A stretch of 35,530 bases of DNA from positions 1-35,530 of the forward strand of contig NW_019029082.1 in assembly GCF_002105155.1 (NCBI RefSeq). The letters run 5' to 3'. Within the stretch, counting starts at the first letter, position 1. Each line of letters starts with the position of its first letter. A program made the translations under genes and the position numbers. Source of the DNA: Lobosporangium transversale (Eukaryota). A model generated the notes under the pieces. That model was not told the origin of the DNA and did no database searches. It saw nothing but the letters and a program-made list of their open reading frames with translations. Shown piece by piece: positions 4,757 to 35,530 of this stretch.

Positions 4757-4809
4757 ACCAGGCCAGCCTCGCTCTCACCACCAACCCTCGAGTCCTGGGC
4801 TCTAGAGGG
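4732..4809 (+). promoter_or_regulatory. -1 ribosomal frameshift signal: G GGA AAA plus downstream RNA structure
   Basis: The heptamer is in the gag frame and the -1 frame is open from it into pol. The structure is conserved in family C. Confidence 0.8.
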
Positions 4810-8571: not shown

Positions 8572-8651
8572 CACCAAAATTATTTTTCTCTGTTTCTTTT
8601 TTCTTTATTTTTCTTCTTTTTTTTTCTCTTCTCTCTTCCTTTCTTCTTTTA

Positions 8652-9299: not shown

Positions 9300-9357
9300 G
9301 GAGACTTTTTTCCTTTTTTTGAAATAAGCAAAGAGGAATGAGGAAAGAATGCAACAC

Positions 9358-9570
9358 TGTAAATAGTAACAATCAAAGGTGATCTTAGGTGGAATCGAAG
9401 GTCAAAGGATACTTTATTTGGCTATAACGTAGTGGACTATTTATACTGATAATTGATAGGGTTGGGGCTTGGTGTCTTGGCACTTGGGCTTGGCGTCTTG
9501 GCGCCTGGGGTGCGCGTGATAGTTGAGCCCTCCTCAAAGGTTTGAGTCAGTATTGTATAACACGTTTGCA
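9358..9570 (-). mobile_element. Solo LTR-A, inverted, inside the family A element
   Basis: Reverse complement of 3422-3634; 5-bp TSD AACAC at 9353-9357 and 9571-9575. Confidence 0.95.
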
Positions 9571-9804
9571 AACACGAACTCACCAACTCCATCGCCACTC
9601 ATTCACCCATCCTCATCCACATGATCTGCATGAACCGCATGACCAGTAATTTTAACCAATCAGACATCACCACATCTTTTTTTTATTTATTTATTATTTT
9701 ATTTATTTCTCCTCTCTTCTCTTCGTTTTCTTTATTTCCATCAATTTTTTTTTTTTCTCTTTTCTTCTTCGATTTATGATCTCCTTCATTTTTGACGGGA
9801 AGGA

Positions 9805-10017
9805 TGCAAACGTGTTATACAATACTGACTCAAACCTTTGAGGAGGGCTCAACTATCACGCGCACCCCAGGCGCCAAGACGCCAAGCCCAAGTGCCAAGA
9901 CACCAAGCCCCAACCCTATCAATTATCAGTATAAATAGTCCACTACGTTATAGCCAAATAAAGTATCCTTTGACCTTCGATTCCACCTAAGATCACCTTT
10001 GATTGTTACTATTTACA
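9805..10017 (+). repeat. 3' LTR, family A
   Basis: Appears identical to the 5' LTR; preceded by a polypurine tract. Confidence 0.95.
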
Positions 10018-11497: not shown

Positions 11498-12034
11498 TGT
11501 CAAGGACTGACAAAGGGTTTGCAAGGAAAGGTAAGTGAATGAATAACAAGAATGATAATGAGCTGAGAACTAGAATGGATTCACGAATAGTTTTATTGCA
11601 GACTGAGGTTTACTATGTTACAAATCTATCATATTTATACTTGTTTGACTGAAGCGGAGACGCGCTTCAAGAACTCTAAATAAAGCTTACTCAAATATTT
11701 CCTAAGGACTTTTACCATATGCGGAACTTCAAGTGTTGAGTTAACTTAATACACAGGATCCGAGGAAGATATCTGGTGCAATCTTATTTCAAGGTTCCTT
11801 GGCACTATAAGCCTTGGTTATTGGTTTATAGCTCTTCTAGAATCCTTGGAGCTATTCACGGAGCTAGAAAACTAGGAGACGCGACTTGGCTTGACAGGCA
11901 AACTATGCATGGAGGAATGAGTGAAGGAAATGGGCGGAACAAATTAATCAAGCACACGTGATCTTTTTCAGATTCGAATCAGACAAAAGTCATTCATCAA
12001 TTCATGAGCTAGACATTGCTTGCTGTTCGTGACA
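11498..12034 (-). repeat. 5' LTR, family B
   Basis: TGTCA...TGACA ends; near-identical to 18133-18669 (two substitutions seen). Confidence 0.95.
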
Positions 12035-12712
12035 GTAGAACTCCTTGGCTCATTTCTGGGAGGAGTAATCCATTGATATTCGGTAGGAGACCTAATAGGG
12101 GAGAGATCGGCTTCAGTGGGCAGTTGTGGCGATCTTCGAGGCGGAGTGAAGGGTGTGCCTGAAATCATTTGGTCGATATTTCCTTCGCTATACCAACCAC
12201 CAAGATCGTTGTATGAGAGTAGGTTATTGATATCAAAAGGGAAAGACATTTTACTATCTGAAGATTGCGAATAAAGTAGGTTGACAATGAGGATGAGATC
12301 GAGAATGAGATTGAGAATGATGTTGCCCATTTCTCGCAAATTCTATTATTTCTAATTAAAAACGAAGATTGAATTGGTTTGGTGGCCATGCATCTAATTC
12401 ATTCCTTCTATTCAAAAAATATATGCATTTTTGTCTTCGTACGTAAATTTTTATTTTTCAAATTTTTAATTCAAATTGAGTATTGTAAAATATATCCAGT
12501 TTATGACTTTTTGGCGAGGACTCTATTTCTACGTCTAGCCAGAATTGCTTAAATTTAGCCAAAAAAAAATATAAAAAATTGCCAATTTTATATTTTTATC
12601 ATTTTTTACCATAAAAGACCCGACTTTTTAGACTATAGAGGTTATCAACATTAGAAATCTCTATTCTATTAGTCATCTATGCTCTAGCCTAGAGTCCTTT
12701 AAAACCGTAGTG
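12035..12712 (-). mobile_element. Possible 5' end of a CACTA-like DNA transposon, with an ORF start (MSFPFDINN...) interrupted by LTR-B
   Basis: Minus strand begins CACTACGG at 12712; only one end is visible. Confidence 0.3.
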
Positions 12713-12716
12713 ACTA

Positions 12717-12921
12717 CAGTGGCTTCCAAAATTGTCCACATGTTCCACGCCCATGTTTTCCATCTTGATTAGAATAATAGCGATGTTTGCTTGCACTTTT
12801 ATCTTTATCAGAATAAACAAGTATGCCAATGATAAGTGTACTGGTCCAGTTTAAAATATCTCTAGTCTCATTCATCATGGTTTTTCATTGACAACAGTAT
12901 TTAATGTCATTTGGACAATTA
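12717..12921 (+). mobile_element. Orphan left end of a Tc1-like element
   Basis: TA followed by CAGTGGCTTCCAAAATT, resembling the TIR at 14468; no partner end. Confidence 0.5.
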
Positions 12922-12923
12922 TA

Positions 12924-14141
12924 CACTATCATGCAAAACTGAAAGTATAATTCATTCCCATGTCCATTTCTTTTTCTCATTCCTAGAAACCGTATATGCA
13001 TACACCACTCACACTTTGGTTTAATAAAGCTCCCGTCTTCTTCTACGTCATAGTTATGCGCTGTGGCATTAGCTTGTCTCATTTAGAAAGTTAATGACTT
13101 TTTTGTTCATGCACGTCTCTCTTTCAGTTTTGCATGTGCTCTCAAATGTTGCCCATGACAACATCTGGTCGTCATTAAATGCGAATAAAAGAAGGACGTT
13201 CTCTCTTTCCTTTATGAACACTTGCTTAACTCTCTCTTAACTACACCTTCACAGAATATGAGACCCACTCCACAAAGGAAAGTCAACGAAGCCAGGAGGT
13301 GAATGATGGCAGGCATGTCTACTAGAGAAGCTGCTGCTAGTGTCGGTATATCACAATGGACGGCCAACAAGATCTATGCAAAGAATAAAGAGTACATGCC
13401 AGTTAATAAAGGTGGTCGACCAAGGAAATTACCTATAGATATCACGCAGTATCTTAAGGTGAACATGAAACGAGGTACACTCAAGTCTGCAGTTGAGGCC
13501 ACCGTCAGGGCCAACCAGCTCATACCAGCGGCTGTTTCTGAGACCACCGTTAGACGACGGCTCAGGAGTCGGGATTGACAGCAAAGAGGCGTGTACGTAG
13601 GCCAGCTCTGCGGCGAAGACATATTAAAGCCCGTTTGCATTTTCACAACAAGTATAAGGAATGGACTCTGGAAGATTGGAAAAAGGTTATTTGGTCAGAT
13701 GAATCGAAAACAAGCCGAATCTGCTCTGATGGCGCGCAGTGGATCTGGGACGCACTCCGAGACGCCTCACTCGCAGGTCGGTGTAAGGCACTGTCAAGTT
13801 TGGAGGTGGTAACGTTAAAGTGTGGTCATGCTTCTCAGCTGTTAGTGACGCCCATGGTTGGAATACTATCTATTGATGTAAGGATATGGCTTACAAAAGA
13901 ATAAAGATCTTCGGCCATCGAATGAGCACATGCAAAACTGAAAGAGAGACGTGCATGAACAAAAAAGTCATTAACTTTCTAAATGAGACAAGCTAATGCC
14001 ACAGCGCATAACTATGACGTAGAAGAAGACGGGAGCTTTATTAAACCAAAGTGTGAGTGGTGTATGCATATACGGTTTCTAGGAATGAGAAAAAGAAATG
14101 GACATGGGAATGAATTATACTTTCAGTTTTGCATGATAGTG
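12924..14141 (+). mobile_element. Internally deleted Tc1/mariner element with 218-bp TIRs
   Basis: 12924-13141 is inverted at 13924-14141; TA on both sides; degenerate transposase ~13258-13830 (GGRPRKL, VSETTVRRRL, WKKVIWSDESK) with a stop and frameshifts. Confidence 0.9.
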
Positions 14142-14478
14142 TATTAACAAGGTATCACTGACCGTTGATGGCTGGACAAGCCCTTTCCAAGACAACTTCC
14201 TGGGGGTAACAGCTCACTGGATTTATCATGACTGGCGCCAACAAGAGCTGGTCATTGGATTTGAGCCATTGTATGGAGCGCATACAGGTGAGAACTTAGC
14301 GGAATCTCTGGCTAAGGTCATCGATCGATTTAAAATTGGTGACAAGCTTCTAAGTATCACCACCGACAATGCGTCAAATATGTCCAAAATGATCCGAGAG
14401 CTAGAAAAACATCCCAAGGCAGTAGAATGGTAATTCTCAGTCACTTTCAATAATGCTAGCGCATCTACAGTGGTCATC

Positions 14479-14691
14479 TGTAAATAGTAACAATCAAAGG
14501 TGATCTTAGGTGGAATCGAAGGTCAAAGGATACTTTAATTGGCTATAACGTAGTGGACTATTTATACTGATAATTGATAGGGTTGGGGCTTGGTGTCTTG
14601 GCACTTGGGCTTGGCGTCTTGGCGTCTGGGGTGCGCGTGATAGTTGAGCCCTCCTCAAAGGTTTGAGTCAGTATTGTATAACACGTTTGCA
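14479..14691 (-). mobile_element. Solo LTR-A within the Tc1 left TIR
   Basis: TSD TCATC at 14474-14478 and 14692-14696; two substitutions versus the other A LTRs. Confidence 0.95.
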
Positions 14692-15017
14692 TCATCAAAA
14701 GTCATTCAATGATTTTGAATTTTTAACATTCTCATTCCTTTTCTTCATTCTCATCTAGCATGTGGCTAGTATATTTGGGGTAGTGCATTTGTTCCCCACA
14801 CCTCATGATTACTTTCATGTCTCATTCCTAATTATGACTTCATTGTGAAATAAAACCAATTTCAATTTGACCTGCCTATTGAATGACTTCTGCTGAATTT
14901 CAATGTTGATTGCAAAAAAAACTTTTTCACTTCTCTTTTTTCTACCAAGATTACCTTCAGCTATATCTTCATACACCTCTACTTACAATTAACATTCCAC
15001 ATCGTTTAGTATTTATT

Positions 15018-16036
15018 ATGAGGACGCTTTCTAGGGAAAAGGTACAAAATGCTCAGGCCTTACTTCGACAAGGGAAGTCTACAAGCGAAGTGGCAAGGCA
15101 ACTTGGTATCTCTATTTCATCGGCAATAAGGATCAGGAGGGACGTCAAGGACAATATTCCTAAACCCAGAATGGGCAGACCCTCATTGGTTTCCCCTGCT
15201 ACCAAGAGGGTTATTGCACGCGAGGTTGATAGGGGAAACTTAGATCCATTCTGGCAGTTCAAGAATACATCAGATCGAGCCATGGAGTGCATGTCAGTGC
15301 AGAGACTGCCCGACGCTATGTAAAATCAGAGGGTTTGAAAAACTATGGCCGCCCATTCAAGCCTAGGCTGACAAAAATGCAGATTGCGAAAAGGAAAAAT
15401 TTTGCCCTCAACCACCTTGACTGGACTGTTGATGACTGGAAGCGAGTGATGTTCTCGGACGAAAAGCTTTTTGGAAGGCTAGGGTCCTTAGGAGGAAGAA
15501 CACAATATAGGCGACCCGGCCACAGGACTTTAGAAGATCAAGATGTTAGAGAGAGATCAAGGAGAGCACATAACAAACTTATGTGGTGGGGCTGTATCAC
15601 TTATCATGGTGTAGGCGATGGTTGCAGGATCCCTGTCACAGTTGATTCCTCTTTATATGTTGATGTTCTACAAGATTATGTCCTCGGCTCATGGAAGTGG
15701 TATGGCCAGGACCCTGAAAAGTTAATTTTTCAGCAGGACAATGCAAGTGTTCATACGAGTAGGATGGTTAAAGAGTTCTTAATTAAGTCACACATTACCA
15801 CTTTGGAGTGGCCTCCAGATTCTCCTGACCTCAACCCTATCGAGAATGTATGGGCCTACATGGATCATCGGCTCAAGGGATATGAGAAGGTACCAAAGGA
15901 TCTGGATGAACTATGGGAAAGACTACAGGATATCTGGACATCTATTCCACCTGACTTCCTTGATGAGCTATATGAAAGTATGCCACGAAGGGTAGAGGAG
16001 CTACATCGCAAGAAAGGAGGTCGTACACATTACTGA
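15018..16036 (+). pseudogene. Tc1 transposase with one frameshift near 15245
   Basis: HTH and GRP motif, then FSDE, FQQDNA and SPDLNPIENVW with 34 residues between D and E. Confidence 0.9.
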
Positions 16037-16768
16037 AGAACAGAAAAAAAAAACAAATAAAGCAAAGCTCCCGATTTTCTTCAAATGGCATTCAATGAGA
16101 TGCCAATAATTGGCATTCATCTAAATTTTCAATTAGCAACAGGAGCTCATTGACATTGTAGTAGGAGTGACATTGTCGATGGTCGAACTCGCTACGTAAG
16201 TTTCATTAGCGACAAGCAAGATCAAATTGGAGAAAGGAATGAGAATGTCGAAATTCCTAATTCATTGAATGACTTTTGATGACCACTGTAGTAATGAGTT
16301 ATCTCTAACGCTTCTCTTAAAAAAAATAAAAATAAATAAAAATAAAAAACATTAGGCCGCTCAAGGATGGCTTATACCATGTGCCATGCCTTGGACGCAT
16401 CATTAATCTGGCAGTTCAGGCGATTTTGGGCCCAAGTGGTTTGAATGACTTGGCTCCTGAAAATGACAGTCTCTACGTGAACAACAATGAGTGTGAGGAT
16501 GCGGTTGGGTTAACACTTGTAACGCTGAGTACATTACAGAAACTCAGAAAAGGCATTGTTAAGATCAGGTCAGTATTACTCTATAATCTTTGCACCATAT
16601 AGACCCATATAGCGTATACGATGATTTAATTTACCACTCACGTGGGGCAGACGATATCTTATAGTATATAAGATGTCGTCTGTCCAGAAATAAAGACCCC
16701 TCTCTTTGTCCTATTGAACTTTGGTTCCATATACATAGTAAGCTATATCAATTAGGCTAAAACATTGC

Positions 16769-17557
16769 ATTCTTGTAGCTGCGCAGACACAATTGTAGAA
16801 GCCAGACTGATTGCACGAGCCTCCTTATCTTGACTCAATCTCGATATATCCTCTACTTCTTCTACGTTATTTTTAGATGGTGCGAGAGCATTCCCATAGG
16901 TGCTGTCTTCACCGGATGGTTCAACTGGCCCCCACACTATTTCTGGCTCGGAATCTGACACATCCGAAGAATAGTCTCCACCATCATCACAGTCGTGCTC
17001 TTCAGGATCCGTATCAACGTCGCTAGCTTCATCATGATTGTAGAATTCGGAGCCTAGCTCAAGGTCTTCAGCTGCATCCTCACCGTTACTCGAAATTAAG
17101 GTATCAGTGGTGAGGACCTATAATTTGCATCAAGAAAAATAATTAATTATAAGCTAATCGAAATAGCTAGCATGTTCGTGATATTTATAAATACCATTGT
17201 GGACGGCTAATATTATCTATCTCAGAGAGGAGGAAGACAGAGAGTTAGAAATGAAGTAGGCTAATTTGAATTTACGCGTTTTTTTTTTTTTTTCTTTTTT
17301 TTAAAAAAATAAAAAGGTTACCTGGGACAGGAGATGGACTACAGAAACACGAAAAGGGCCTGAATGGAGTCTGCAGGAGAGCGATCCTGACATAAATAAA
17401 ATAGTAATGAGCGATGGAATAGGATTAGATGGCGATTGTGATTCGGAAGAAGCAACTGGCAGAAAAGGGTGGATTTAGCAAATAGCCTACTACGTCACCT
17501 CATTATAAATTCTAACAAAAAAATACCACTACGCAACTTGAGTATTTAAGGGAATTC
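16769..17557 (-). mobile_element. Truncated left end of MULE-1, inverted copy of 26646-27434
   Basis: 789-bp reverse-complement match including the TIR and the transposase start. Confidence 0.92.
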
Positions 17558-17795
17558 TTGCTAGGTCAAAGCGTACCACGGAAATGATACATATATCCTA
17601 GGATTTTTTCGGACTTAGACCTTCCTTTTTTAGTCTAACCGTTCGGATAAATTATTGGTAATCTATACTTAGATTCATTTAGATCTTACGTCATGACTGA
17701 CTCAATCTGAAACAATCTAGGAGTTTCCGGATGAGACCCGATTTGGATAATGATTCCTTTTTGGGTTACCGTTCACCCTCTCTCCCGAGAGTCCG
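17558..17795 (+). repeat. Displaced, slightly diverged fragment of the Penelope-like terminal repeat
   Basis: Reverse complement of ~30899-31137 with a few substitutions; bounded on both sides by MULE TIRs. Confidence 0.9.
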
Positions 17796-19448
17796 GAATT
17801 CCCTTAGATGTGATACCATTAAGGGTGATAATAAAGGCGATTTTAATACGTCATACTTTTTTTTTTTTTTTTTCACGCGTTTGCACAAAAACGATCTTGA
17901 TATCAATTCTTCTTATATACCTCTGTCTCTCCAGGTAAAAATCGTTGATAATATTCAGCTCGCAAACTGTTGCCATTACGCGTCGAATGTTGAATGAACT
18001 CTGAATGTAAATCAACATGTGTATTATTTTAGATCATTTCATCGAACAAGCATTATGGTGCGGAGGCTATGTTACCTTATCAATAATAAATATTTGCACA
18101 TATATTAATCACCTCTCGGTTCTCCTTGACCTTGTCAAGGACTGACAAAGGGTTTGCAAGGAAAGGTAAGTGAATGAATAACAAGAATGATAATGAGCTG
18201 AGAACTAGAATGGATTCACGAATAGTTTTATTGCAGACTGAGGTTTACTATGTTACAAATCTATCATATTTATACTTGTTTGACTGAAGCGGAGACGCGC
18301 TTCAAGAACTCTAAATAAAGCTTACTCAAATATTTCCTAAGGACTTTTACCATATGCGGAACTCCAAGTGTTGAGTTAACTTAATACACAGGATCCGAGG
18401 AAGATATCTGGTGCAATCTTATTTCAAGGTTCCTTGGCACTATAAGCCTTGGTTATTGGTTTATAGCTCTTCTAGAATCCTTGGAGCTATTCACGGAGCT
18501 AGAAAACTAGGAGACGCGACTTGGCTTGACAGGCAAACTATGCATGGAGGAATGAGTGAAGGAAATGAGCGGAACAAATTAATCAAGCACACGTGATCTT
18601 TTTCAGATTCGAATCAGACAAAAGTCATTCATCAATTCATGAGCTAGACATTGCTTGCTGTTCGTGACAGACCTTGCTTTCTGTGTAGAGTTCAGAAGTT
18701 ATTGAGGATAGTCTGTTGGATGATGTAGATGAAATAGATCGCGCTGATGATCTAGAAGAATTCGATTCTGACTGTGAGCATGGGAGCGAGGAATCAGACT
18801 CTGACCGGGACTCGTGGAACGTTGACTACAATGACTATTCGAGTGGGGCTTCGGATTCCGACCCAGAAATAGAGCCTGAATCATCTGCAGCTCCTGTTGA
18901 AGCCATTAGCATCCATCCTTCTGCGGATTTTGGTACCGGGGAAAGCTCACTCATGCCGGGTGGCTCAGAGAGTCCAGAACTAGACGAGAGTGTCATTGCG
19001 AACGCCAATGAAATAGCAACTGAGATTTTGTGCTCGGAGGTGCATGATTACCAATGGATTAAGTCGACTCTCGATGATGAAACGATCAAAGACATTGTAA
19101 ACGACTCCCGTACAGAACCGTATGACTACCTGCCCCGTATTTTTTACGTGAACGAGGAGGACTTCAGCGCTTGGCTTGAACAGGATAGTCTCGATCATTA
19201 TTTTGTTTGGATGCGCCGTGTACATCGAGATAATAAGGCAGATGGCAGAAGCAAATACTTTTATTTTCAAACCCACGAATGCCACCGTAACCATGACTCG
19301 CGAGGCCAAAATCGCGTTCAAACCGCTCAACAAGACTCCCCTCAAGACTCCTCTCAAGATTCCCCTCAAGACCCTGGGCAGGAACAAGGAGGCGCGTCTT
19401 TAAGAAGAGCCAAAAAGTTGGATGTAGAGCAAAGCTTCTAGTCCACAA
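17796..19448 (+). mobile_element. 5' part of a second MULE family (MULE-2), truncated by LTR-C
   Basis: Starts GAATTCCCTTAG like the MULE-1 TIR. ORF 18716-19441 resembles MULE-1 (YQWIKST, YDYLPRIFYV; KVGCRAKLLVH after a frameshift). Confidence 0.8.
18133..18669 (-). mobile_element. Solo LTR-B
   Basis: TSD GACCT at 18128-18132 and 18670-18674. Confidence 0.95.
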
Positions 19449-19710
19449 TGCAAGCGAAATCACTATAATAATTTTGTGCAACATAGTATTTCGCCCATAT
19501 TTCTAGAGCATTCCTTGCAACAGGATATTAACTAGTATAAATAGGTCTACTTTTCTATCTAGTTCTGTAGCATAGTTCCCCCTGAATAAAGATACCTTTA
19601 TTGCACCCTTAGATCCCCCTAGAACACTACCTTGATTTTTGCATTGGTAGCAAAGGAAACCACGACCACACCCAGAGAACTACAATTACCATTGAATTTC
19701 ACCCCTCGCC

Positions 19711-20682
19711 ATGGAACACTTGAATAACGCCCTTTCGTCCATCGATCTTCCTCTGAACATTCGCGAAGCCATAGCTACTGCTTTTAATCAGGCCCTCTCT
19801 ACTGCCAAAGCCAACGAAGCCGCTGAGAATGACCTAGCCAGAACCCTCGCCACGGTCCTAAAGCCACAGAAGCCTACGCCTTACGAAGGAGCTATTAACG
19901 CTGTTGCAGCCTTAAACTTTGTCGACAGCCTGGAGGAGTATTACACTATTGTCACACTCACGCCATCCAAATGGGTTCGATACGCTGTCCTCAGTCTCAA
20001 TGGCGAAGCCAAGGCATGGTGGAGAGATTCCGGGTTGAATCTCGATACACCTTGGGCTGACTTCCGTAAAGCATTCCTCCGTCAGTTCACCCCTCCAGAT
20101 TCTGCGAATGCAGCTCGCCGAGCGTTGGATAAACTTCGTCAGGGAAGGATGAGTGTGGCAGAATATACGAGCAAGTTTAGAAGCCACCTACGTCTGGCTA
20201 CAAATCTCGACAAAGACTCTGCTTTGCAAAAATACATGCTAGGCCTTGAGCCCGAAACAAGCAAGCAGGTAAGACTTAGACAGCCAGAGACGTTGGACGA
20301 TGCCATTGAGCAGGCGACCATTGTCCACAGTATTCTACATCCCATCGATGCCACCCCTGTATCCGCTACCCCGAACGCCTTATCACCCCATCATGAGAAT
20401 AATTCTGGCCCTACACCAATGGATCTCGATAACATGAGAATGTTGGTTGCCAACCTGTACACCTCTCTCCATCAGCAACGACCAAACAGAAACCACTCCA
20501 AGCCAAGCTCGCTACCCAAGCTCACAGCAGCTGAACGAGAACGTTGCGTTCGTGAGGGGCGTTGTTTCAGATGCCGGAACCGAGGTCATAGAGCCGAACA
20601 ATGCCAACGCACCTCTGTCTTTAATATAGAAAACAATGACCATACGCTTTCTGAGTCGGGAAAAGAGGAGGGCGAGCAGTAA
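19711..20682 (+). CDS. gag: Gag, family C
   Basis: Colinear with family A Gag; CFRCRNRGHRAEQC knuckle. Confidence 0.93.
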   Translation: MEHLNNALSSIDLPLNIREAIATAFNQALSTAKANEAAENDLARTLATVLKPQKPTPYEGAINAVAALNFVDSLEEYYTIVTLTPSKWVRYAVLSLNGEAKAWWRDSGLNLDTPWADFRKAFLRQFTPPDSANAARRALDKLRQGRMSVAEYTSKFRSHLRLATNLDKDSALQKYMLGLEPETSKQVRLRQPETLDDAIEQATIVHSILHPIDATPVSATPNALSPHHENNSGPTPMDLDNMRMLVANLYTSLHQQRPNRNHSKPSSLPKLTAAERERCVREGRCFRCRNRGHRAEQCQRTSVFNIENNDHTLSESGKEEGEQ

Positions 20683-21859
20683 ACCAGGCCTGCCTCGCCC
20701 CCTCTAGCCCCAGCCTTCAAGCCCTGGATAATAGAGGGCATGGTCAGTTACAGTTGATGACTACAAATAAAAATCCTTTGTGCACAAATATAACATCCAT
20801 GCCCCTTTCTGATCACTCTATTGCTCCCACTGCATCTACTTCCTTACATCTACTCTCTAAGTATTCACCTCATCCTGATCCCCATTCCCCTACTCATTCC
20901 TCATTGCTAAAAAACAATCCCCTCTCCGACCCTATTTTCCCCTCCACTGATCCTTTCACTGTTTCCACTTCACTCACTTCCACTCATTCATCTACCCCTA
21001 GTTCATCCAATCGCCACTCCCATTGTCGTAACGAAATTCGCCTTCAATCCTTCAGCCTTACCTATGACAAACATAAAAACTCTCGCCGACTCCTTACTTT
21101 CATTGGAGCAGTGAATGGTCGACCTGCGCGCATTCTTGTAGATGGAGGGGCCGAAGGCAATGTCATAAGTTCCTCTTTCTGCGAGAACACACATGTTCCG
21201 CTAATTGAGGGTAGACCCATTCCTGTCATTCTTCCCAACGGTACCGAGACAATTGCTCAGCACACAGCCACGTTCACCCTCGCCCGCAACGCGTATCAGG
21301 ATAAAATCAACGCCATTGTTTATCCTCTATCCAAATACGACCTAATTTTGGGTAAACCATGGCTGATGGATATCAACCCTCGCATCAATTGGCGAACAAA
21401 TGATCTGCATTTTGAATACCAAGGTACCCCGGTCTTGTGGCCTTGCACTGGCATCGACAGGAAGCCTAGACAGCGATCTTCCGTCATATCTGCTCTTAAC
21501 TTCCTTACCGTTGCCTCGGAACCTGATGCCTCTGTATTCCTCGCCCAAGTTCGAGTTCCAGTACCTGTCTCTAGCAGTAGTTCTGAACTACCGGACTCTA
21601 TCAAGCAAATCGTTCAAGTCGAATTCCCTGATGTCTTTTATACAACGCTTCCTGATGGCCTTCCCCCTGACAGAGGTGATAGCATGCGTATAGAGACTGA
21701 CCCTTATGCTGACCCACCTGTCCGACCTGTCATCAGATTGTCGATCGCTGAGCTTGATGAACTGAAGAAGCAGCTAACTGATCTTTTACAAAAAGGATTA
21801 ATCTCACCGAGCACCTCACCATACGGTGCTCCAGTCCTCTTTCTGAAGAAAAAGGATGG
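20658..21859 (+). pseudogene. pol: Truncated Pol, family C (protease and first RT residues)
   Basis: G GGA AAA at 20658-20664; LVDGGA; SPSTSPYGAPVLF. Confidence 0.9.
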
Positions 21860-22382
21860 TGTCACGAACAGCAAGCAATGTCTAGCTCATGAATTGATGA
21901 ATGACTTTTGTCTGATTCGAATCTGAAAAAGATCACGTGTGCTTGATTAATTTGTTCCGCTCATTTCCTTCACTCATTCCTCCATGCATAGTTTGCCTGT
22001 CAAGCCAAGTCGCGTCTCCTAGTTTTCTAGCTCCGTGAATAGCTCCAAGGATTCTAGAAGAGCTATAAACCAATAACCAAGGCTTATAGTGCCAAGGAAC
22101 CTTGAAATAAGATTGCACCAGATATCTTCCTCGGATCCTGTGTATTAAGTTAACTCAACACTTGGAGTTCCGCATATGGTAAAAGTCCTTAGGAAATATT
22201 TGAGTAAGCTTTATTTAGAGTTCTTGAAGCGCGTCTCCGCTTCAGTCAAACAAGTATAAATATGATAGATTTGTAACATAGTAAACCTCAGTCTGCCATA
22301 AAACTATTCTTGAATCTCCTAAGTTCATTCTTGTTCCTAAATCACTTACCTTCTCTTGCAATCGTCCTGTCAGTCCTTGACA
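21860..22382 (+). mobile_element. Solo LTR-B variant with a divergent 3' part and no TSD
   Basis: Matches the other B LTRs to ~22296, then diverges but ends TGTCAGTCCTTGACA; flanks GATGG/TTAAT. Confidence 0.9.
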
Positions 22383-22998
22383 TTAATACAAAGTAATATG
22401 GCAAATGTAATCAATATATACTTCTTCTTCTTCCTCCTCGATAATTCGACGACTTCGTTTACTCATTTTAAGAGATGTTTTGGGCTTAATTGAGATAATG
22501 CATGAAAAGGAAAAGAGAGAAAAAAAAAAAAAAAAAAAAGGAAAAGGAAAGGAAATGAGGCGAACTGAAGCGAATGCAAACACATTTGTTGTCCTGATGC
22601 CGCAGTTGAGTATTTAAGTATAACGCACCAGATATCTCGCACTCGTTGTTAGGCTTTATTTTCTATAAACATGTGTTTTAACCTTATCTTCATGGTAATA
22701 TTTTTCTTAATCCACGATTTAAATCCACATTTTGATTAAGAGTGCCGTGAGAAAAAATTTATAAAGATTTTAATCGGTTTATCAATGTACCGAATGATTC
22801 GGTATATCAAATGGATTGAATCGGTACAATCGAAGCACCGAATGTTCCGGTTTACCGAATGCATCGAATATTCGATACATTCGATTCGGTTTCGACAATA
22901 TATATTCATTCGGTTTCGATTCGATATGAACCTTACCTTGGTCAATTCGATTTCGGTTCGAAGGTGTATTGAATCGAATGTACCGATTAGGAGCACTG
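22383..22998 (-). mobile_element. Probable hAT-like element end with subterminal repeat array
   Basis: Minus strand starts CAGTGCTCC; many ATCGAA/ACCGAA/TTCGRT motifs in both orientations at ~22770-22990; short exon MSKRSRRIIEEEEEE downstream. Confidence 0.5.
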
Positions 22999-26645: not shown

Positions 26646-29600
26646 GAATTCCCTTAAATACTCAAGTTGCGTAGTGGTATTTTTTTGTTAGAATTTATAA
26701 TGAGGTGACGTAGTAGGCTATTTGCTAAATCCACCCTTTTCTGCCAGTTGCTTCTTCCGAATCACAATCGCCATCTAATCCTATTCCATCGCTCATTACT
26801 ATTTTATTTATGTCAGGATCGCTCTCCTGCAGACTCCATTCAGGCCCTTTTCGTGTTTCTGTAGTCCATCTCCTGTCCCAGGTAACCTTTTTATTTTTTT
26901 AAAAAAAAGAAAAAAAAAAAAAAACGCGTAAATTCAAATTAGCCTACTTCATTTCTAACTCTCTGTCTTCCTCCTCTCTGAGATAGATAATATTAGCCGT
27001 CCACAATGGTATTTATAAATATCACGAACATGCTAGCTATTTCGATTAGCTTATAATTAATTATTTTTCTTGATGCAAATTATAGGTCCTCACCACTGAT
27101 ACCTTAATTTCGAGTAACGGTGAGGATGCAGCTGAAGACCTTGAGCTAGGCTCCGAATTCTACAATCATGATGAAGCTAGCGACGTTGATACGGATCCTG
27201 AAGAGCACGACTGTGATGATGGTGGAGACTATTCTTCGGATGTGTCAGATTCCGAGCCAGAAATAGTGTGGGGGCCAGTTGAACCATCCGGTGAAGACAG
27301 CACCTATGGGAATGCTCTCGCACCATCTAAAAATAACGTAGAAGAAGTAGAGGATATATCGAGATTGAGTCAAGATAAGGAGGCTCGTGCAATCAGTCTG
27401 GCTTCTACAATTGTGTCTGCGCAGCTACAAGAATACTCTTGGATTGAGTCGACGGTCCCAGAGGCTAAGATTAAGGATATTGTTGATGGCCTCAGGATTA
27501 AGAAACAGGACTACGATTATTTGCCGCACGTATTCTATGTGGACAAAAGGGACTTTGAACTGTGGAAAGACCGAGATGGCAGCGATCACTTTTTTATTTG
27601 GAATAAAGGCAACTCTGAGATAAATGGTAGAAATGAAGACAATGAAGACTCTGAAATCACCAACGACAATGATAGCAAAGGCAAACTGCGTTCATTTCAA
27701 CTTTATTTCTGCCACTGTGCAGGCGCCCCACGCAAAAAAAAGATTACTGACCAAGATCAACTACTTGAGAGGCCAGCCAAGAAAACTCGCAATGTTTATA
27801 AACCGACCAAGAAAGTAGGCTGTAAAGCCAGGCTAATTGTTCATGACGTAAAACCCGATATGGAAGAGTTCGCAAGTAGAGGAGAAAGGAACCAGCTGCG
27901 TGTGATATATTACTACAAGCACACTGGGCATACTCTTGCCAGTCTCGAGGACTTTCAGCATCTCAGAGTGACAGAAGAAACAAAATCGCGAATTCGAAAC
28001 CTTGTCCGTTTAGGTCTCTGTACAAGAAAGATTCTGACAAGGATAAACCTGACTGGTAGCCAGGCATTCTCGCGACACCAAAGAGGGTCTTTAGAGCGTG
28101 ACCATGTCCTGAAGTATGAGGATGTGTACAATATTTATTATAAATATTCAAGTGGGCAGAGTCAGCTTGAAAAGAATGACTTAGTCTCGATGAGGCTGTG
28201 GATGGACAAACTAAAGGACAAGGGCTTCACTGTATTCACACTCGCCTACCACATCATAATAGACGGAGTGAATCATGCAAGATTTGCATATGGGTTTATG
28301 TCGCCGTTCCAGAAATCAGTTTATGGATCCAATTTTAAACACATTGGGCTAGATTCAACACATGGAACAAATCGCTCTAAACACGAGCTTTACACCATAA
28401 TTGTGCGGAACCCACAAAGTCTGAGTGCTATCCCAGTTGCCTTCTTGCTTACGAACGATCATAGCCATGTACCGTTGGCAAGATGGTTGACACATATCAG
28501 AGAAACCATTGGCTCACCTGAATACATCACCACTGATGATGCTCGAGCAGAATATAAAGCAATCCGATTGGCGTTTGGAGACTCAGCCACAGTTCATTTA
28601 TGTCTATGGCATGTTATGAAAGCTTGGAGCACCAAGCTTCGAAGTGTTATCCGTGCAACGCAAGACAAGGCTGCTAAGGAGTTGAGGGAAGAAGCGATGG
28701 GAGAGCTCCGTAGAATTTTGTTTGATCCAAACCGTACGCGAGCTGAGACTCTTATTTCAGAATTCGAGTTGAAATGGCAGGATCATAATGAGGGCAAAGT
28801 CTGGAATTATTTTAGGGAACGCTACCTCAGTGAAGACCGAAGGAGAAGGTGGATGAAATGTTATCGTATGGGAAAGTTTTATGCTGGGATGGATACTAAC
28901 AATTACGTCGAGTCCTGGCACAACCACCTTAAGTCGCACTTCTTACGAGGTTATACAAACTGCAGAGGAGATAGATTGATTTATATCTTAACTCATGATG
29001 TAGATGAGTTTTACCAAATGATGGCAATGCAGACCGTGCGGCGCTATGGGCGACATTCAAAAGGCGAGAGAGATGACATTCACCAAAGAAAATTTCTAGA
29101 TGGACTAGAAGACCTTCCACAGCGCATTGTTCACGAGCAGCAAGTGGGTGACCGAACCGTTTACTGTGTGCGCTCGTTCTCCGTATCTGGCGGATATTAT
29201 TTCGTGGTTGCCACGAATCAAACTATCTCAAGATGTAACTGTCAGTACTTTATGTATTCTCAGCGCCCCTGCAGACATATGTATCTTTTGCATCAAGTTC
29301 ATAAGGATAACCCAGACCCACCGCTCCACATCATACACGATGTCCTTGAGAGGGTCCCTGATAGACATGCTATGATCCAGAATTACCAAGATGGCCTGGA
29401 AGGGGATGTTAACCCAAGCATCAGTGATGCCCTGTTGGAGGTAGAGGATGCTGAAGCAGAGGAGGTTGCTGAGGCAGAGAGGATTGCTGATGCGGTTACT
29501 GAATCTTTGGAGATACTCAAAAAGGGCCTCCATGATTCAGATAGCATTGTGAGATGTCCCGACGCAGCAAGGGAGTTAAGTGATATGGTTGAACGGTATT

Positions 29601-30666
29601 TTTCTTTACAAAGAACGATAAATACATCTGGGAACCAAAAACGGCAGCGCCAATAAAAAAAATTTTTTTTACATGTATATATTTGATTTAAAAACTATTC
29701 AATCCAATTCAATCAAAGAGAGCACAATCAAAATAGCCAATCAGAAATCAGGATTTCATTTCTTTTTTTTTTTTTACAGAACGATGAAAAAAGAAAATCC
29801 ATTCTCTGTTGATGGAGAATATCTACAAGACTGAAAATCATATATTTGGTAGGGAAGACCCATCGGTACGATTTAAAAAAAAGTTGAAAAGATTCGGTTA
29901 AGTCTTCAGTAGGATACCTCCATTCAAAGAACTTGTACATCGAAAATAATCAGGATTATGATCATCTTCTTTCGTTCAAAAGTAATATTACTCTGTCAGT
30001 AATGGCGATACACATTGTAAAATATAGATTCAAGTAGCCAAAAGCTATATCTATAAGTCGTATATATGCACTCCAAGGAACCAGCAATGCGGTTGTCAAG
30101 AAAATGGCCATTGAATTCTCTAAATAGAGTAATATCTGGAATTTATAGTCTCTCCTTCATCTTTAAACAACAAGGATTGTTATTTTTGTAAACTAAGTCG
30201 CTGTAAAAATACCACAGTTGGATTCAGCATTGACATGTCCTTTTAACCTGAAAATATGGTGAAGTTTGAAGGTTTTATCATAGAGCTCTACTTTTTTTAC
30301 TAATTTCAACGAAACATTTTTTTAGACAAGTGTCTACCAAGCTATACTTGGTTTCCAAAGTCAGTTTTTATGTCACTACGGATACTCAATTTCTTCAGAA
30401 ACTTCAATTGCTACCCTAGATCGCTTTATATTAGTGTCTTTTGTCATTATCCAAAGTTTGGTTTGGATTGAGATTCATTTGAATGACTTTTACATATGAG
30501 AACTGGTTTTCCCATATGATTATGGACTTAGAGACAGGTTAGATTGAACTTCCATGTATATTTCGGCTCACATGACCCACATGGCCCACATGACTTGTAT
30601 GGAAATAACTTTTATTTTTTATAAGGGCGTCTCATATTTGGCCAACTTGAGTATCTAAGGGGACTC
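26646..30666 (+). mobile_element. MULE-1, full-length Mutator-like DNA transposon
   Basis: 24-bp imperfect TIRs (GAATTCCCTTAAATACTCAAGTTG versus GAGTCCCCTTAGATACTCAAGTTG, three mismatches); intact transposase; no TSD visible. Confidence 0.88.
27006..29656 (+). CDS. MULE transposase with SWIM zinc finger, ~857 aa
   Basis: LDSTHGTN, TTDD, CLWH, TNNYVESWH and CNC..PCRH. Predicted ATG-only exon 27006-27008, intron 27009-27085, exon 2 open from 27086. Confidence 0.9.
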
Positions 30667-30760
30667 CTTATTTGGAGCCAGCAAACCGGTTATTTGTGGC
30701 TTTCTACTCCTTAACTAGGGTCACGTGACAAAATTTATTTTAGGTATCTATTTTTAGGGT
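30667..30760 (-). repeat. Remnant of an older Penelope-like terminal repeat
   Basis: Matches ~31143-31237 with one substitution and one T fewer; ends at TTTTTAGGGT. Confidence 0.85.
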
Positions 30761-31289
30761 TTTTGATAAGTAGGATGGGTTTTTTTGTGAAAAAGTGGAA
30801 AAAGTGACTGAGAGTGAGAAAGAAGACTGCGGGACAAGTGCTTGTTTCGATCTTTTCTCTTCAGCCTTGTCTTCTTTTTATACTTTTTTCACGCCTCTCG
30901 GACTCTCGGGAGAGAGGGTGAACGGTAACCCAAAAAGGAATCATTATCCAAATCGGGTCTCATCCGGAAACTCCTAGATTGTTTCAGATTGAGTCAGTTA
31001 TGACGTAAGATCTAAAATTAATCTAAGTATAGATTACAAATAATTTATCCGAACGGTTAGACTAAAAAAGGAAGGTCTAAGTCCGAAAAAATCCTAGGAT
31101 ATATGTATCATTTCCGTGGTACGCGTCGACCTAGCAAACAGGTTTATTTGGAGCCAGCAAACCAGTTATTTGTGGCTTTCTACTCCTTAACTAGGGTCAC
31201 GTGACAAAATTTATTTTTAGGTATCTATTTTTAGGGTCTATTTTTAGGGTTCTATTTTAGGGTTTTTTTAGGGTTATTTTTAGGGTTTT
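30756..31289 (-). repeat. Proximal pseudo-LTR
   Basis: Appears identical to 34383-34916 (offset 3627). Confidence 0.95.
30819..30877 (-). ncRNA. Type I hammerhead ribozyme
   Basis: Minus strand AAAGAAGAC-AA-GG CTGAAGA GA-AAAGA-TC GAAA CAAG-CA-CTTG TC / CC-GCA-GTCTTCTTT; predicted GUC cleavage between 30833 and 30832. Confidence 0.85.
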
Positions 31290-31316
31290 CTTTTAGGGTT
31301 ATTTTTAGGGTTAGGG
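31213..31316 (+). repeat. Internal variant telomeric repeat tract
   Basis: TTTTTAGGT, TTTTTAGGG, TCTATTTTTAGGG, TTATTTTTAGGG etc., ending in TTAGGG. Confidence 0.9.
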
Positions 31317-31472
31317 TCAAGGAGGGTCAGCTCTGGCCTATACCATGAACCTGAGAAAACTCCTAAAAAATCTAAAGAAAACTTACTAAGTCTAAAAAAC
31401 CGGACCTATTTTGTCGGGGATGAGGGCTAGTTATAATATAAGATACGGAAGAGATCTCATTGAACTAGTCAT

Positions 31473-34367
31473 CTACAATCGACTCCTTATTGGGGCGGAT
31501 TGGAGAATCTTTTTATTATAGGTGTTCAACTGGTTGCGCAGGTTGGAGCCTTTATAAATTATCCATGTGGTTTGTGTATTCTCATAACGGGCAGGTTTGA
31601 GGGTATGGATATCTCGTAGAATCATACGTCCAAACTGTTCAAGTTTGTCACGTCCAGGGATGTTATGGAGGAACATTTTTTTGATAATAGTATCATTTTT
31701 CTGAGACGAGGGTGCCGGGTACAAAAGAGTATTCCGTTCATCGTATGAGTGTAATCTGAGTTGATTGTTGATTACATGTGAGGGGTAGTTTCTATTAAGA
31801 AGATGTTGGGCAAATTGTGCTGTGGCATGGGTGTGGAAAGAAGACTGACTAGAGTTTCTAATTAGTCTTTGGTTTTCACCATTAATCCAGTTAAAAACAT
31901 ATTTCCTAGGGTAGTATGTATCTGGATCAGTGTATAGGTGTTTATTAACGGGTTTGTCGAAAGGAGCAATAGTAAATCGGGTTGGACTAGTATTGTTATC
32001 GACAGAAATAAGAAGGTCGAGCATAACTACTTGTTGACCATTGTTACCATGGTCGATAGTGATATTAAGACTTTGACAAGAGGCATAAATCTGATGAAGT
32101 TTAATGTCAATGTATGGTTTCAAAAGATTGAATGTCTCTTTAGACCAGGGAAGGTTATCATGTTTGGTAGTTCTGATTATGGCAAAGCCATCATCTATAT
32201 ACCGGAACAGGGTGATGTCAAAGAAATCGAGTTTATAGAAAAACATTGGGGAATTAGTGCCAACTGGAAGGTTGTCAGGAAAAACTCCATGGAATTGTTG
32301 TTGTTTCTCTACGCAGCATGCAAAGAGGCGGGCTATGGTGGGTGCCATGGGAGTTCCCATAGCTAAGCCTTTGACTTGTCTGTAATTATTTGTAAGGTCA
32401 GAGACAAGGCAGTTCTTATTAACCCATTCTGCGAGTTTCAGACATATTTGGATTTCATAATTGTAAGAATGATTGCAGAAGTAGTGTAGTATGGTTTTTC
32501 TGGCTTCTTCAAAGTCGATGTTACCATACATGTTGATGACGTCGAAAGCTGCTAATGAGTAATGGCAGTAAGGATCAAAGTCAAAATTTTCTAGATAACG
32601 TATTAGTGTGGGGGTGTCGGGAAGATCTCTAGGGAACTCATTAAGTAGAGGGCGCAGGTTTCTATCGACAAACTGACTAATAGTGTGTGTTATCCAAGGG
32701 AAAGAGGGGACTATAGGTCTAGCACCGGGTGGTGACTTATGTATTTTAGGTAAAAGATACATAACTGGGACAGTATAGAAGTTAGGATTGGTTCTAACAT
32801 TATCTCTTATTAGTTTAGCTTCTGAGAGTAATTTATTTTTAATTCTAAGAGGACTAAGATTGACTATAGAAAAGAGTGAGTTTATCATATTGTCAATGGA
32901 GAACGAAGGGCACGGGACATAACAGGAAGTATCTGTTAGAAGTTTCGTAGTCTGGGATGTATACCAGTCTAGGTCCATAATAGTGAGTCCTAAGTTTTTA
33001 TCAGCAGGGCCAATGATAAGTTTATGGGTAAGCATAAAGTTAATGGTCTTGTTGATTTTGGAAAGGAGTTTTTTGTGAGGATTGTTTTCTCTGATTTTAG
33101 TTATATTATTAATTAACTGAGGTTTGTAGGCATCGAACAGAACATTAGCTAGATTAATATCTAGTTTATTAATATTCCTACAAAGTTGGTTACGCAATTT
33201 CTTTAGTTCTGAGCTCAGAACAACATAGTTGGGAGGTTTATGTATATTGAAATTGACTCCTTTATTTAAGACTTGAAGAATATCATGGGGGATGGATTGT
33301 ACGGAAGACATATTGTTGACTCCGACAAAATCATGTAAATCTACTTTTTTTGTTTCTGAGGGGATGGGGCTTTTTTCACGGGGCCTTTTCCTTTCTTTAC
33401 ATGGGTGGTTTTCTTGGAGGACGTTGGGGGACCACCTTTCTTCTTGTCTTTCTTCGCCATCGATGGGCCTTTTGGTCCTTTGTATTTGTTGGTGTCGTTC
33501 TGTCGACGTGATGGCTTGGGTTTGCTTGGCTTCTTCTTCGAGGCGTCCTTCTTGGTATTCTAGAGGGAAAGTAGAGTTGATCTTAGAATAGATTATATTT
33601 AATCGTGGAGCAAACCAAAGGGAAACAATTATCTTGAATACCTTTAATCCAAGATTTAATTGCTGGAATTCTGCAGTGGCTCGTAATACTTGCACTTGAG
33701 CAGAAAACTCAATAGCAGTGGCACGAATCAGCTTGTAGGTGAAGTCTTTACCCAGATTATTCAGATGAGAATTGTTTTCAACGGCCACAAGGGCAGATGA
33801 AAGGGTGTCCGCTAGCTGTCTGGGGAGGGTGTCATTGAGTTCACTTTGGCATTGTTGGATGATATTTGCTTTGTCAGCTTTAATGGCCGATACTAACAAA
33901 TTGTCAAACGAAGTGCTAAGTGTAGCAAGGACGTCCTTTGACAGGGTAACACGGTTATTGTTGACAGTAAGATGTCCCCAATAGCCTAGTTGTGTCTTAG
34001 CGTTGACTTCACGCAGAATCTTCTGAGCCATTCGGATTTTATCCAAAAGAATGGCCGCCTTATTGACAAATTTGCTTAAGATGTCTGCGGCAACCCTGTC
34101 AGTCATCGTTCCCTTTTTGAAAGAGGGAAGATAGGAACCAGGGTTCAGAGAGGTGTCACTATTCCCAATATGATTATTGAGACGAGCGACGAGCTGCTCG
34201 AGGGTGGGAAGGTCTGCCGGTGCAGTCCCTCCTCCCATCTCGGCATCGGCATCGATCATAGCCTGACCTGGAACTTGTTGACCTGGGGTGACTTGGAAGA
34301 CATCCTGGTTTCCACGGGCAGAGCTTGACGATGAGGAGGGGCCGGGGGCAGCGTGAGTATTGACCAT
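31473..34367 (-). CDS. Penelope-like reverse transcriptase ORF, 964 aa unspliced
   Basis: PADKNLG, LPKIHK..RPIV, FDVINMY, GLAMGTPMAP, FRYIDD, MLDL and DKP motifs; the C-terminus ends without an endonuclease. Confidence 0.93.
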   Translation of the reverse strand: MVNTHAAPGPSSSSSSARGNQDVFQVTPGQQVPGQAMIDADAEMGGGTAPADLPTLEQLVARLNNHIGNSDTSLNPGSYLPSFKKGTMTDRVAADILSKFVNKAAILLDKIRMAQKILREVNAKTQLGYWGHLTVNNNRVTLSKDVLATLSTSFDNLLVSAIKADKANIIQQCQSELNDTLPRQLADTLSSALVAVENNSHLNNLGKDFTYKLIRATAIEFSAQVQVLRATAEFQQLNLGLKVFKIIVSLWFAPRLNIIYSKINSTFPLEYQEGRLEEEAKQTQAITSTERHQQIQRTKRPIDGEERQEERWSPNVLQENHPCKERKRPREKSPIPSETKKVDLHDFVGVNNMSSVQSIPHDILQVLNKGVNFNIHKPPNYVVLSSELKKLRNQLCRNINKLDINLANVLFDAYKPQLINNITKIRENNPHKKLLSKINKTINFMLTHKLIIGPADKNLGLTIMDLDWYTSQTTKLLTDTSCYVPCPSFSIDNMINSLFSIVNLSPLRIKNKLLSEAKLIRDNVRTNPNFYTVPVMYLLPKIHKSPPGARPIVPSFPWITHTISQFVDRNLRPLLNEFPRDLPDTPTLIRYLENFDFDPYCHYSLAAFDVINMYGNIDFEEARKTILHYFCNHSYNYEIQICLKLAEWVNKNCLVSDLTNNYRQVKGLAMGTPMAPTIARLFACCVEKQQQFHGVFPDNLPVGTNSPMFFYKLDFFDITLFRYIDDGFAIIRTTKHDNLPWSKETFNLLKPYIDIKLHQIYASCQSLNITIDHGNNGQQVVMLDLLISVDNNTSPTRFTIAPFDKPVNKHLYTDPDTYYPRKYVFNWINGENQRLIRNSSQSSFHTHATAQFAQHLLNRNYPSHVINNQLRLHSYDERNTLLYPAPSSQKNDTIIKKMFLHNIPGRDKLEQFGRMILRDIHTLKPARYENTQTTWIIYKGSNLRNQLNTYNKKILQSAPIRSRL
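33341..34367 (-). CDS. Predicted spliced 314-aa ORF1-like protein with a Lys-rich tail (exons 34367-33642 and 33559-33341)
   Basis: GTATTC...CTAAG...CTCTACTTTCCCTCTAG 82-nt intron; the spliced frame gives 72 aa with 25 Lys. Confidence 0.6.
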
Positions 34368-34382
34368 CTTGAGAGGAACTTG

Positions 34383-34916
34383 AGGGTTTTTGATAAGTAG
34401 GATGGGTTTTTTTGTGAAAAAGTGGAAAAAGTGACTGAGAGTGAGAAAGAAGACTGCGGGACAAGTGCTTGTTTCGATCTTTTCTCTTCAGCCTTGTCTT
34501 CTTTTTATACTTTTTTCACGCCTCTCGGACTCTCGGGAGAGAGGGTGAACGGTAACCCAAAAAGGAATCATTATCCAAATCGGGTCTCATCCGGAAACTC
34601 CTAGATTGTTTCAGATTGAGTCAGTTATGACGTAAGATCTAAAATTAATCTAAGTATAGATTACAAATAATTTATCCGAACGGTTAGACTAAAAAAGGAA
34701 GGTCTAAGTCCGAAAAAATCCTAGGATATATGTATCATTTCCGTGGTACGCGTCGACCTAGCAAACAGGTTTATTTGGAGCCAGCAAACCAGTTATTTGT
34801 GGCTTTCTACTCCTTAACTAGGGTCACGTGACAAAATTTATTTTTAGGTATCTATTTTTAGGGTCTATTTTTAGGGTTCTATTTTAGGGTTTTTTTAGGG
34901 TTATTTTTAGGGTTTT
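34383..34916 (-). repeat. Distal pseudo-LTR merging into the telomere
   Basis: Direct repeat of 30756-31289; ends 16 nt upstream of the ATG. Confidence 0.95.
34446..34504 (-). ncRNA. Type I hammerhead ribozyme, second copy
   Basis: Same sequence as 30819-30877; predicted cleavage between 34460 and 34459. Confidence 0.85.
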
Positions 34917-35530
34917 TTTTAGGGTTTTTTAGGGTTTTTTAGGGTTTTTTAGGGTTTTTTAGGGTTTTTTAGGGTTTTTTTAGGGTTTTTTAGGGTTTTT
35001 TAGGGTTTTTTAGGGTTTTTTAGGGTTTTTTAGGGTTTTTTAGGGTTTTTTTAGGGTTTTTTAGGGTTTTTTTAGGGTTTTTTAGGGTTTTTTAGGGTTT
35101 TTTAGGGTTTTTTAGGGTTTTTTTAGGGTTTTTTAGGGTTTTTTAGGGTTTTTTAGGGTTTTTTAGGGTTTTTTAGGGTTTTTTTAGGGTTTTTTAGGGT
35201 TTTTTAGGGTTTTTTAGGGTTTTTTAGGGTTTTTTAGGGTTTTTTAGGGTTTTTTAGGGTTTTTTAGGGTTTTTTAGGGTTTTTTAGGGTTTTTTAGGGT
35301 TTTTTTAGGGTTTTTTAGGGTTTTTTAGGGTTTTTTAGGGTTTTTTAGGGTTTTTTAGGGTTTTTTAGGGTTTTTTAGGGTTTTTTAGGGTTTTTTAGGG
35401 TTTTTTAGGGTTTTTTAGGGTTTTTTAGGGTTTTTTAGGGTTTTTTAGGGTTTTTTAGGGTTTTTTTAGGGTTTTTTAGGGTTTTTTAGGGTTTTTTAGG
35501 GTTTTTTAGGGTTTTTTAGGGTTTTTTAGG
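34917..35530 (+). repeat. Telomere (TTTTTTAGGG)n
   Basis: About 60 T6AG3 units, some T7, with the G-rich strand running to the sequence end. Confidence 0.97.

Follow-up and report, generated by a model that had tools for sequence, protein, structure and literature searches.

Endonuclease-deficient Penelope-like elements (PLEs), known as Coprina in fungi and Athena in rotifers, have a telomerase-like (TERT-like) reverse transcriptase (RT) with a DKN motif and no GIY-YIG endonuclease, carry direct terminal repeats, and lie at chromosome ends with the 5' end outward and a reverse-complement telomere repeat just past a hammerhead ribozyme motif (PMC8557442, PMC6431247, PMC13159263). Coprina elements have one open reading frame (ORF) and Athena elements two, with exceptions (PMC13159263). 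We analyzed a 35,530-nt stretch of the Lobosporangium transversale genome (contig NW_019029082.1, positions 1 to 35,530; hereafter, the window), which holds on its minus strand an element with the same anatomy, its 5' end facing the telomere and telomere repeats capping it. Because of the TERT-like RT, the DKN motif, the lack of GIY-YIG, the pseudo-long terminal repeats (pseudo-LTRs) and the telomeric position with the 5' end outward, we assign it to the chromosome-end PLEs: it is an endonuclease-less TERT-like PLE abutting a fungal telomere, a known kind of telomeric retroelement, the likeness to Coprina and Athena being one of anatomy. Unlike these, it fuses ORF1 to the RT through a retained in-frame intron, and splicing gives a lysine-tailed ORF1; the element has one ORF when unspliced and two products with splicing. 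In the literature searched, we found no description of Mortierellaceae PLEs of the Coprina/Athena type.

Hammerheads in fungal PLEs and the hypothesis of a circular intermediate were already published in 2014 by Cervera and de la Pena (PMC4209133), who described the same type I motif in both pseudo-LTRs and proposed that the RNA is cut, ligated into a circle, and reverse-transcribed over more than one unit. Whereas the fungal motifs of that study are active as monomers and possess a large helix III, the motif in the window, with a 4-bp self-complementary helix III and a 2-bp helix II, is nearer to animal motifs of the dimer type. In the green anole element Poseidon (PMC11167929), reverse transcription likewise begins at a fixed internal site past the cut, so that genomic copies carry a 'tail', but this element has an endonuclease and primes without homology, whereas the window element has a telomere-complementary nonamer that allows pairing over 5–9 nt. 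Both the role of PLE hammerheads and the reason for intron retention have been described as unknown (PMC8557442). The features in which the present element is a variant of the published systems are the dimer-type motif in a fungal element, the fixed priming site, and a retained-intron switch backed by a spliced contig.

The two pseudo-LTRs are 560-nt direct repeats spaced 3627 nt apart, a partial tandem arrangement in which the genomic copy (pseudo-LTR/ORF/pseudo-LTR) is 1.15 units long. Across 103 sequences, the invariant columns of the RT are D-K, KHK, D, QG, and RxxDD. A structural model of the C-terminal 622 aa of the fusion protein had a mean predicted local distance difference test score (pLDDT) of 92.9, and its best three fold matches in the PDB were all TERT (E 1.8e-9 to 2.4e-8). 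GIY-YIG was found neither as a motif, nor in Pfam, nor among the 50 fold matches listed. Pfam assigned no family to the 964-aa protein and a weak RVT_1 match to one of six close relatives, a PDB sequence search gave no matches, and the ESM Atlas gave no usable match for ORF1, for which the two named relatives are both from Mortierellaceae. We considered and ruled out an LTR retrotransposon, as the element lacks integrase, RNase H and protease and has a TERT-like RT, and a host telomerase gene, based on the pseudo-LTRs and truncated copies.

For comparison we used two metagenome loci, L001 and L002, with ~50% protein identity to the window element (from 463 candidate stretches); searches of viral contigs by protein and by hammerhead pattern gave no loci. 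L001 has a 123-nt terminal repeat (1–123 and 3888–4010) enclosing a unit of 3887 nt, as read from the assembly either a collapsed tandem or a circular assembly, which the repeat cannot distinguish. Copies at other chromosome ends were observed only as contig joints in public sequencing runs. Five of these runs, from four studies, are DNA runs (X1, X2, X3, X5, and X8, with X1 and X5 from one sample). X7 is presumed to be an RNA run, a guess for which exact removal of an intron is the reason. The window copy differs at 31447 and 32260 from the contigs in all three DNA runs compared, and X8 shows 230 C>T versus 22 G>A changes over 33050–34900 and in this resembles a bisulfite library.

Each pseudo-LTR carries on its coding strand an identical copy of the hammerhead motif, the two lying 3627 nt apart, as an earlier note on this DNA had proposed; we counted the two copies, one duplicated sequence, as a single observation. 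The conserved core (CUGANGA, GAA, A15.1–U16.1 and H17, the consensus being as in PMC4209133) is present in order. The earlier note had correctly read the core CUGAAGA, a 2-bp helix II (with a 5-nt loop), GAAA, the GUC site, and a helix I of 2 bp, an internal loop (AA/GCA) and 9 bp. Of the three helices, helix I is open and helix III is marginal within one strand, and all pairs are standard in the three sequences compared. The note's reading of helix III as CAAG/CUUG did not hold, since the helix would then close a loop of 2 nt; within a single strand, ACAA/UUGU forms 4 bp around a 4-nt loop, and a fifth pair requires two copies. The predicted cuts, after C 34460 and C 30833, give the unit of 3627 nt (34459 to 30833) that the note had claimed, with the first AUG 92 nt past the cut and no AUG upstream of it. 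An outer helix, which overlaps a TATA-like box at 34509–34502, could extend helix I; both of its strands are kept in L001, and in L002, which starts at helix I, the 5' side is unscorable.

A relaxed hammerhead descriptor found two sites in the whole window, both of them the pseudo-LTR motifs, and the same descriptor gave no matches in 2000 dinucleotide shuffles of the pseudo-LTR and nine in 200 whole-window shuffles; based on these counts, we rejected a chance motif. The motif is kept in L001 and L002 with 90% identity, compared with 63% for RT-coding DNA, 50% for the 300 nt upstream (L001 only), and 59–63% for the leader. The core differs among the relatives only at N7 (A/U) and H17 (C/A), positions that the consensus leaves free; the other differences lie in loops II and III and on the 3' side of the internal loop. 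The position of the motif relative to the nonamer and the AUG is fixed in all three elements. These comparisons bear out two expectations, that minimal type I hammerheads occur in PLE pseudo-LTRs and that the core is conserved in related elements. We conclude from sequence that the hammerhead motif is real and conserved and that self-cleavage is predicted.

Folding energies bear on whether one motif or two are needed. In all three elements, the helix III hairpin has a predicted energy of +0.4 to +0.7 kcal/mol, compared with −7.5 to −8.5 kcal/mol for the self-duplex. In a single copy, the active fold has −8.0 kcal/mol compared with −11.3 kcal/mol for the lowest-energy fold (z −0.65). The double hammerhead of the window, at −25.3 kcal/mol, is more stable than either a pair of active single folds (−16.0) or a pair of inactive ones (−22.6). 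Because helix III is weak alone and self-complementary, pairwise cleavage is likely according to these models, probably with assistance from protein. The invariant strand before the core (34498–34493) has the same sequence as the 5' arm of helix III and is able to base-pair with the strand of the cleavage site (34466–34460); the conserved inactive fold that results, preferred by a single motif, may serve as an off switch.

Downstream of the motif lies the presumed priming site, the telomere-complementary nonamer at which the proximal copy of the pseudo-LTR ends; the nonamer is kept in all three elements 68–77 nt after the cut and is mostly unpaired in the predicted ensemble; the reverse-complement telomere repeat AAAAACCCT is likewise found downstream of the hammerhead in all three. 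Three types of junction were found, and in each a pairing of 5–9 nt is possible: 34383 to the older pseudo-LTR remnant in the window; 34383 to the equivalent of 31306, the start of the telomere-like block (a joint in X7, loose ends in X5 and X8); and 34387 to 33123 in a shortened copy (X2, X3, and X5). All of them fall at equivalents of 34383–34387, downstream of the cut. No joint or loose end among those listed fell at the cut site, which single contigs span in all five DNA runs. As read from these junctions, reverse transcription starts 68–77 nt downstream of the cut in all junction types. A linear cut monomer, the working unit implied by the earlier note, is rejected as template by the junction position. 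On such a monomer, RT primed at the nonamer would reach the end of its template after 77 nt; the sequence data therefore indicate a template that is continuous across the cut site, through re-ligation, through the lack of a cut, or through a precise switch that bridges it.

The junction from 34383 to 31306 (X5, X7, and X8) lacks the ORF and, if repeated, would give hammerhead units of 551 nt. Such a unit would resemble the non-long terminal repeat retrozymes, ORF-less tandem type I hammerhead units derived from pseudo-LTRs (PMC7229834; bioRxiv 10.64898/2026.07.22.740005). Animal retrozymes form arrays, whereas here the junction alone was seen and the window holds no tandem array of ORF-less units. 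If real, ORF-less units of 551 nt would be the first retrozymes from a fungus.

The unit also contains an 82-nt GT-AG intron that the earlier note had overlooked, and with it gives rise to more than one RNA form. A 1097-nt contig from X7 skips exactly 33641–33560 (joint 33559–33642), a joint found in none of the five DNA runs; the intron is present in DNA in all five, and also in L001 (100 nt) and L002 (94 nt). In these two loci it has the same place, phase 0, a length of 3n+1, and no stop in the ORF frame, with two to three stops in each other frame. The chance that all three introns are open is ~0.006 (by shuffling, with the introns, 56–58% identical, taken as independent). Splicing shifts the frame, ORF1 then ending at 33341 after 314 aa, and the spliced tails in L001 and L002 are 80 and 85 aa. 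The relatives P0001–P0005 (P0001 being the protein of L001) have frames open through the intron stretch, while the gene models P0158 and P0242, from Entomortierella chlamydospora and Linnemannia hyalina, correspond to the spliced lysine-tailed form. Where the two frames overlap, conservation is slightly higher in the tail frame than in the RT frame (identities of 30 versus 27, 34 versus 25, and 49 versus 44). The 314-aa basic-tailed ORF1 made from the spliced RNA is probably the RNA-binding partner. Because the RT has no separate frame upstream of its conserved region besides internal methionines, intron retention would be the simplest path to RT, as judged from the frames. On this view, only RNA that keeps the intron codes for RT, and RNA of that kind alone has been copied into the genome.

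The contigs listed for X7 cover neither the hammerhead nor the inside of the intron and miss the greater part of both the pseudo-LTR and the RT, and we did not use gaps or depths as evidence; short RT pieces cover 31540–31736 and 32330–32480, and none of these contigs retains the intron. The ORF1 contig runs into adapter at 33257, close to an AATAAA (33266) that doubles as the codons of a conserved NK. In a protein-level test for a retained intron among 73 longer RT relatives, the linker scored in 37/73, a control RT region in 36/73, and the upstream region in 26, with 16 expected from shuffles; the linker did not stand out from the control region, and the claim of an intron switch is limited to the close family. 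A second, diverged subfamily is present at 33239–33979 (X3, X5, and X7), with 106 differences in 742 nt. In X7 this subfamily is spliced as well, but with an intron shorter by 2 nt and with different indels nearby, so that reading through the intron may not stay in frame with RT. The L. hyalina cluster of identical proteins around P0242 comprises five gene models, one of which has the lowest locus number of its assembly, consistent with copies at several chromosome ends.

The literature searched holds no description of an ORF1-RT intron switch; the clade-defining papers of 2007 and 2017, outside that search, may describe it. The switch is alike to that of the plant Ty1/Copia element EVD (PMC5580714), in which splicing gives a short structural protein and unspliced RNA serves for the enzyme fusion and as template, but EVD belongs to an unrelated retroelement class and couples splicing to early termination.

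Our working hypothesis, which we hold at a little short of even confidence, is that a pair-cut, intron-containing unit of 3627 nt is rejoined as a circle and likely serves as the template for reverse transcription. Specifically, RNA with two motifs would fold as a double hammerhead via the self-complementary helix III, with cleavage at both sites; the two ends would be held by helix I and its outer extension and then ligated, and a circle with one motif and a preferred inactive fold would resist recutting. The 3' end of a chromosome would then pair over 5–9 nt with AAAAACCCU, and RT would copy 77 nt, cross the junction, circle once, and continue as far as the telomere-like block; the product, a 1.15-unit pseudo-LTR/ORF/pseudo-LTR copy like the one observed, would be capped by telomerase. 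A circle route has been proposed for PLEs before (PMC4209133). Several observations weigh against this hypothesis. The covariance models that the earlier note had suggested as a check gave no Rfam hammerhead match in 29500–35530 at E <= 10, the scan returning three unrelated weak matches, and none of 26 helix pairs varies among the three sequences. In its 141-nt context, the active single fold lies 10 kcal/mol above the minimum. The earlier idea that the motifs act as dimers stands insofar as the double fold beats two active single folds, yet in each of the three elements another dimer has a lower energy (double hammerhead versus best dimer, −25.3/−30.2 kcal/mol in the window, −20.9/−28.9 in L001, and −24.5/−31.1 in L002), and in L001 it is also less stable than two inactive single folds (−24.4). 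Moreover, ligated and uncut RNA are identical in sequence across the junction, and DNA and contigs cannot tell them apart; the 1.15-unit copy predicted by the circle would also result from uncut RNA with a leader-to-tail homology switch.

Such an uncut linear template is possible, though on balance doubtful. Here, a capped transcript starting in the leader would carry one inactive hammerhead near its 3' end and be primed at the nonamer of its tail; the leader having the tail sequence, a homology switch of RT to a second RNA would add the distal pseudo-LTR, and the hammerheads would merely trim multimeric read-through RNA of tandem arrays. The junction data fit this equally well, a single motif prefers the inactive fold, and the TATA-like box at 34509, found in the same place in L001 and followed by a pyrimidine-rich leader, makes a capped start within the leader possible, which also counts against the circle. 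So do the hammerhead mutants of anole Poseidon, in which in vitro insertion was unimpaired, with unprocessed RNA as the main substrate, and for which no RNA-seq reads started or ended at the cut (PMC11167929). On the other hand, a failed second switch predicts joints or loose ends at the leader start, and none was found among those listed for DNA, an absence limited by the loss of rare forms from contigs; in AT-rich DNA, a single TATA-like match per pseudo-LTR is close to what chance would give, and the box overlaps the outer helix. An uncut template also gives a weaker reason for the 90% conservation of the motif. The least probable of the readings considered is that the motif is kept for a role other than cleavage, as a protein-binding or promoter sequence, or as a passenger serving ORF-less retrozyme-like repeats. 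Stems that are invariant rather than covarying are what sequence-specific binding predicts, the ORF-less junction of tail to pseudo-LTR start occurs in DNA and in X7, and hammerhead parasitism of PLEs has been raised (PMC8557442); but core changes restricted to the consensus-free N7 and H17, and the fixed position relative to nonamer and AUG in all three elements, argue against it. Quite improbable, too, is that the cut serves chiefly expression, providing a 5'-OH end 92 nt before the AUG for cap-independent translation of ORF1 and ORF1-RT, with uncut RNA as template. The distance from cut to AUG is 92, 102, and 92 nt in the three elements, without an upstream AUG in the window. Spliced RNAs are most simply taken as capped products of polymerase II, which speaks against this reading. 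Type I hammerheads with a helix II of 0–2 bp in 5' untranslated regions of fungal viruses are active in vivo as self-cleaving motifs, and translation depends on one of them, but the motifs alone had small effects (PMC13725137). By analogy, cap-independent translation from the cut end is plausible.

Joined with the intron switch, the circle hypothesis extends to two RNA fates: spliced RNA would encode the basic ORF1, while intron-retaining RNA would undergo pair-dependent hammerhead cutting to a 3.6-kb coding circle, support cap-free translation of ORF1-RT, and be rolled onto chromosome ends from the telomerase-like template nonamer. In its full form the scheme is unlikely; if true, it would provide one mechanism for PLE introns, hammerheads, and pseudo-LTRs. 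Because this family of elements is intact and spliced, has near-identical copies in several public runs, and most likely comes from a culturable family of fungi, both the choice between circular and uncut template and the intron switch are directly testable.

Table 1 Features of the PLE and the adjoining telomere, in window coordinates.
Feature	Position	Strand	Remarks
Older pseudo-LTR remnant	30668..30760	-	97.9%; full element joined onto remnant; adjoins MULE-like transposon end
Proximal pseudo-LTR	30753..31312	-	continues 77–80 nt beyond predicted cut
Proximal type I hammerhead motif	30819..30877	-	identical to distal motif; predicted cut between 30833 and 30832
Variant telomere-like repeat block at pseudo-LTR start	31200..31320	-	distal copy at ~34830–34930
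ORF1-RT fusion frame	31473..34367	-	964 aa, via retained intron; DKN at 456, YIDD at 723; no GIY-YIG
Second exon of spliced ORF1	33341..33559	-	72-aa tail with 27 K/R; also open in RT frame
GT-AG intron	33560..33641	-	82 nt; phase 0, 3n+1, stop-free in ORF frame
Distal pseudo-LTR including leader/tail	34380..34936	-	99.3% identity to proximal copy over 560 nt
Telomere-complementary nonamer AAAAACCCU	34383..34391	-	putative priming site, 68–76 nt after the cut; proximal copy at 30756–30764
Outer helix able to extend helix I (putative)	34411..34519	-	~9–10 bp, 34519–34509 with 34423–34414
Distal type I hammerhead motif	34446..34504	-	59 nt; predicted cut between 34460 and 34459
Telomere (TTTTTTAGGG)n	34930..35530	+	(T6AG3)n; 51 units with six T, 7 with seven

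The window beyond the PLE is also rich in mobile elements. A MULE-like transposon occupies 26646–30667, with a transposase at 27860–29656 (Pfam MULE), whose named relatives are all from Mortierellaceae, and with imperfect terminal inverted repeats of ~23 nt. The older pseudo-LTR is found in two parts, at 30668–30760 and, inverted, at 17558–17795, the latter adjoining a 789-nt perfect inverted copy of the left arm of the MULE-like transposon (16769–17557). From this layout, the MULE-like transposon appears to have split the older pseudo-LTR, and the inverted part suggests a later 9-kb inversion; within the pseudo-LTR the two parts are separated by 6 nt, and no target-site duplication is evident. 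Elsewhere, the subtelomere consists of nested mobile elements (3418–10017, 11498–22384, and 12921–16282), including a gag-pol LTR element at 3785–8571 with 217-nt repeats and further gag-like ORFs with 221-nt and 537-nt repeats. Besides these, an ORF at 25957, which we take to be Crinkler-like, a Peptidase_C48 ORF at 1660–2703, and a DDE_3 transposase at 15377–16036 were found.

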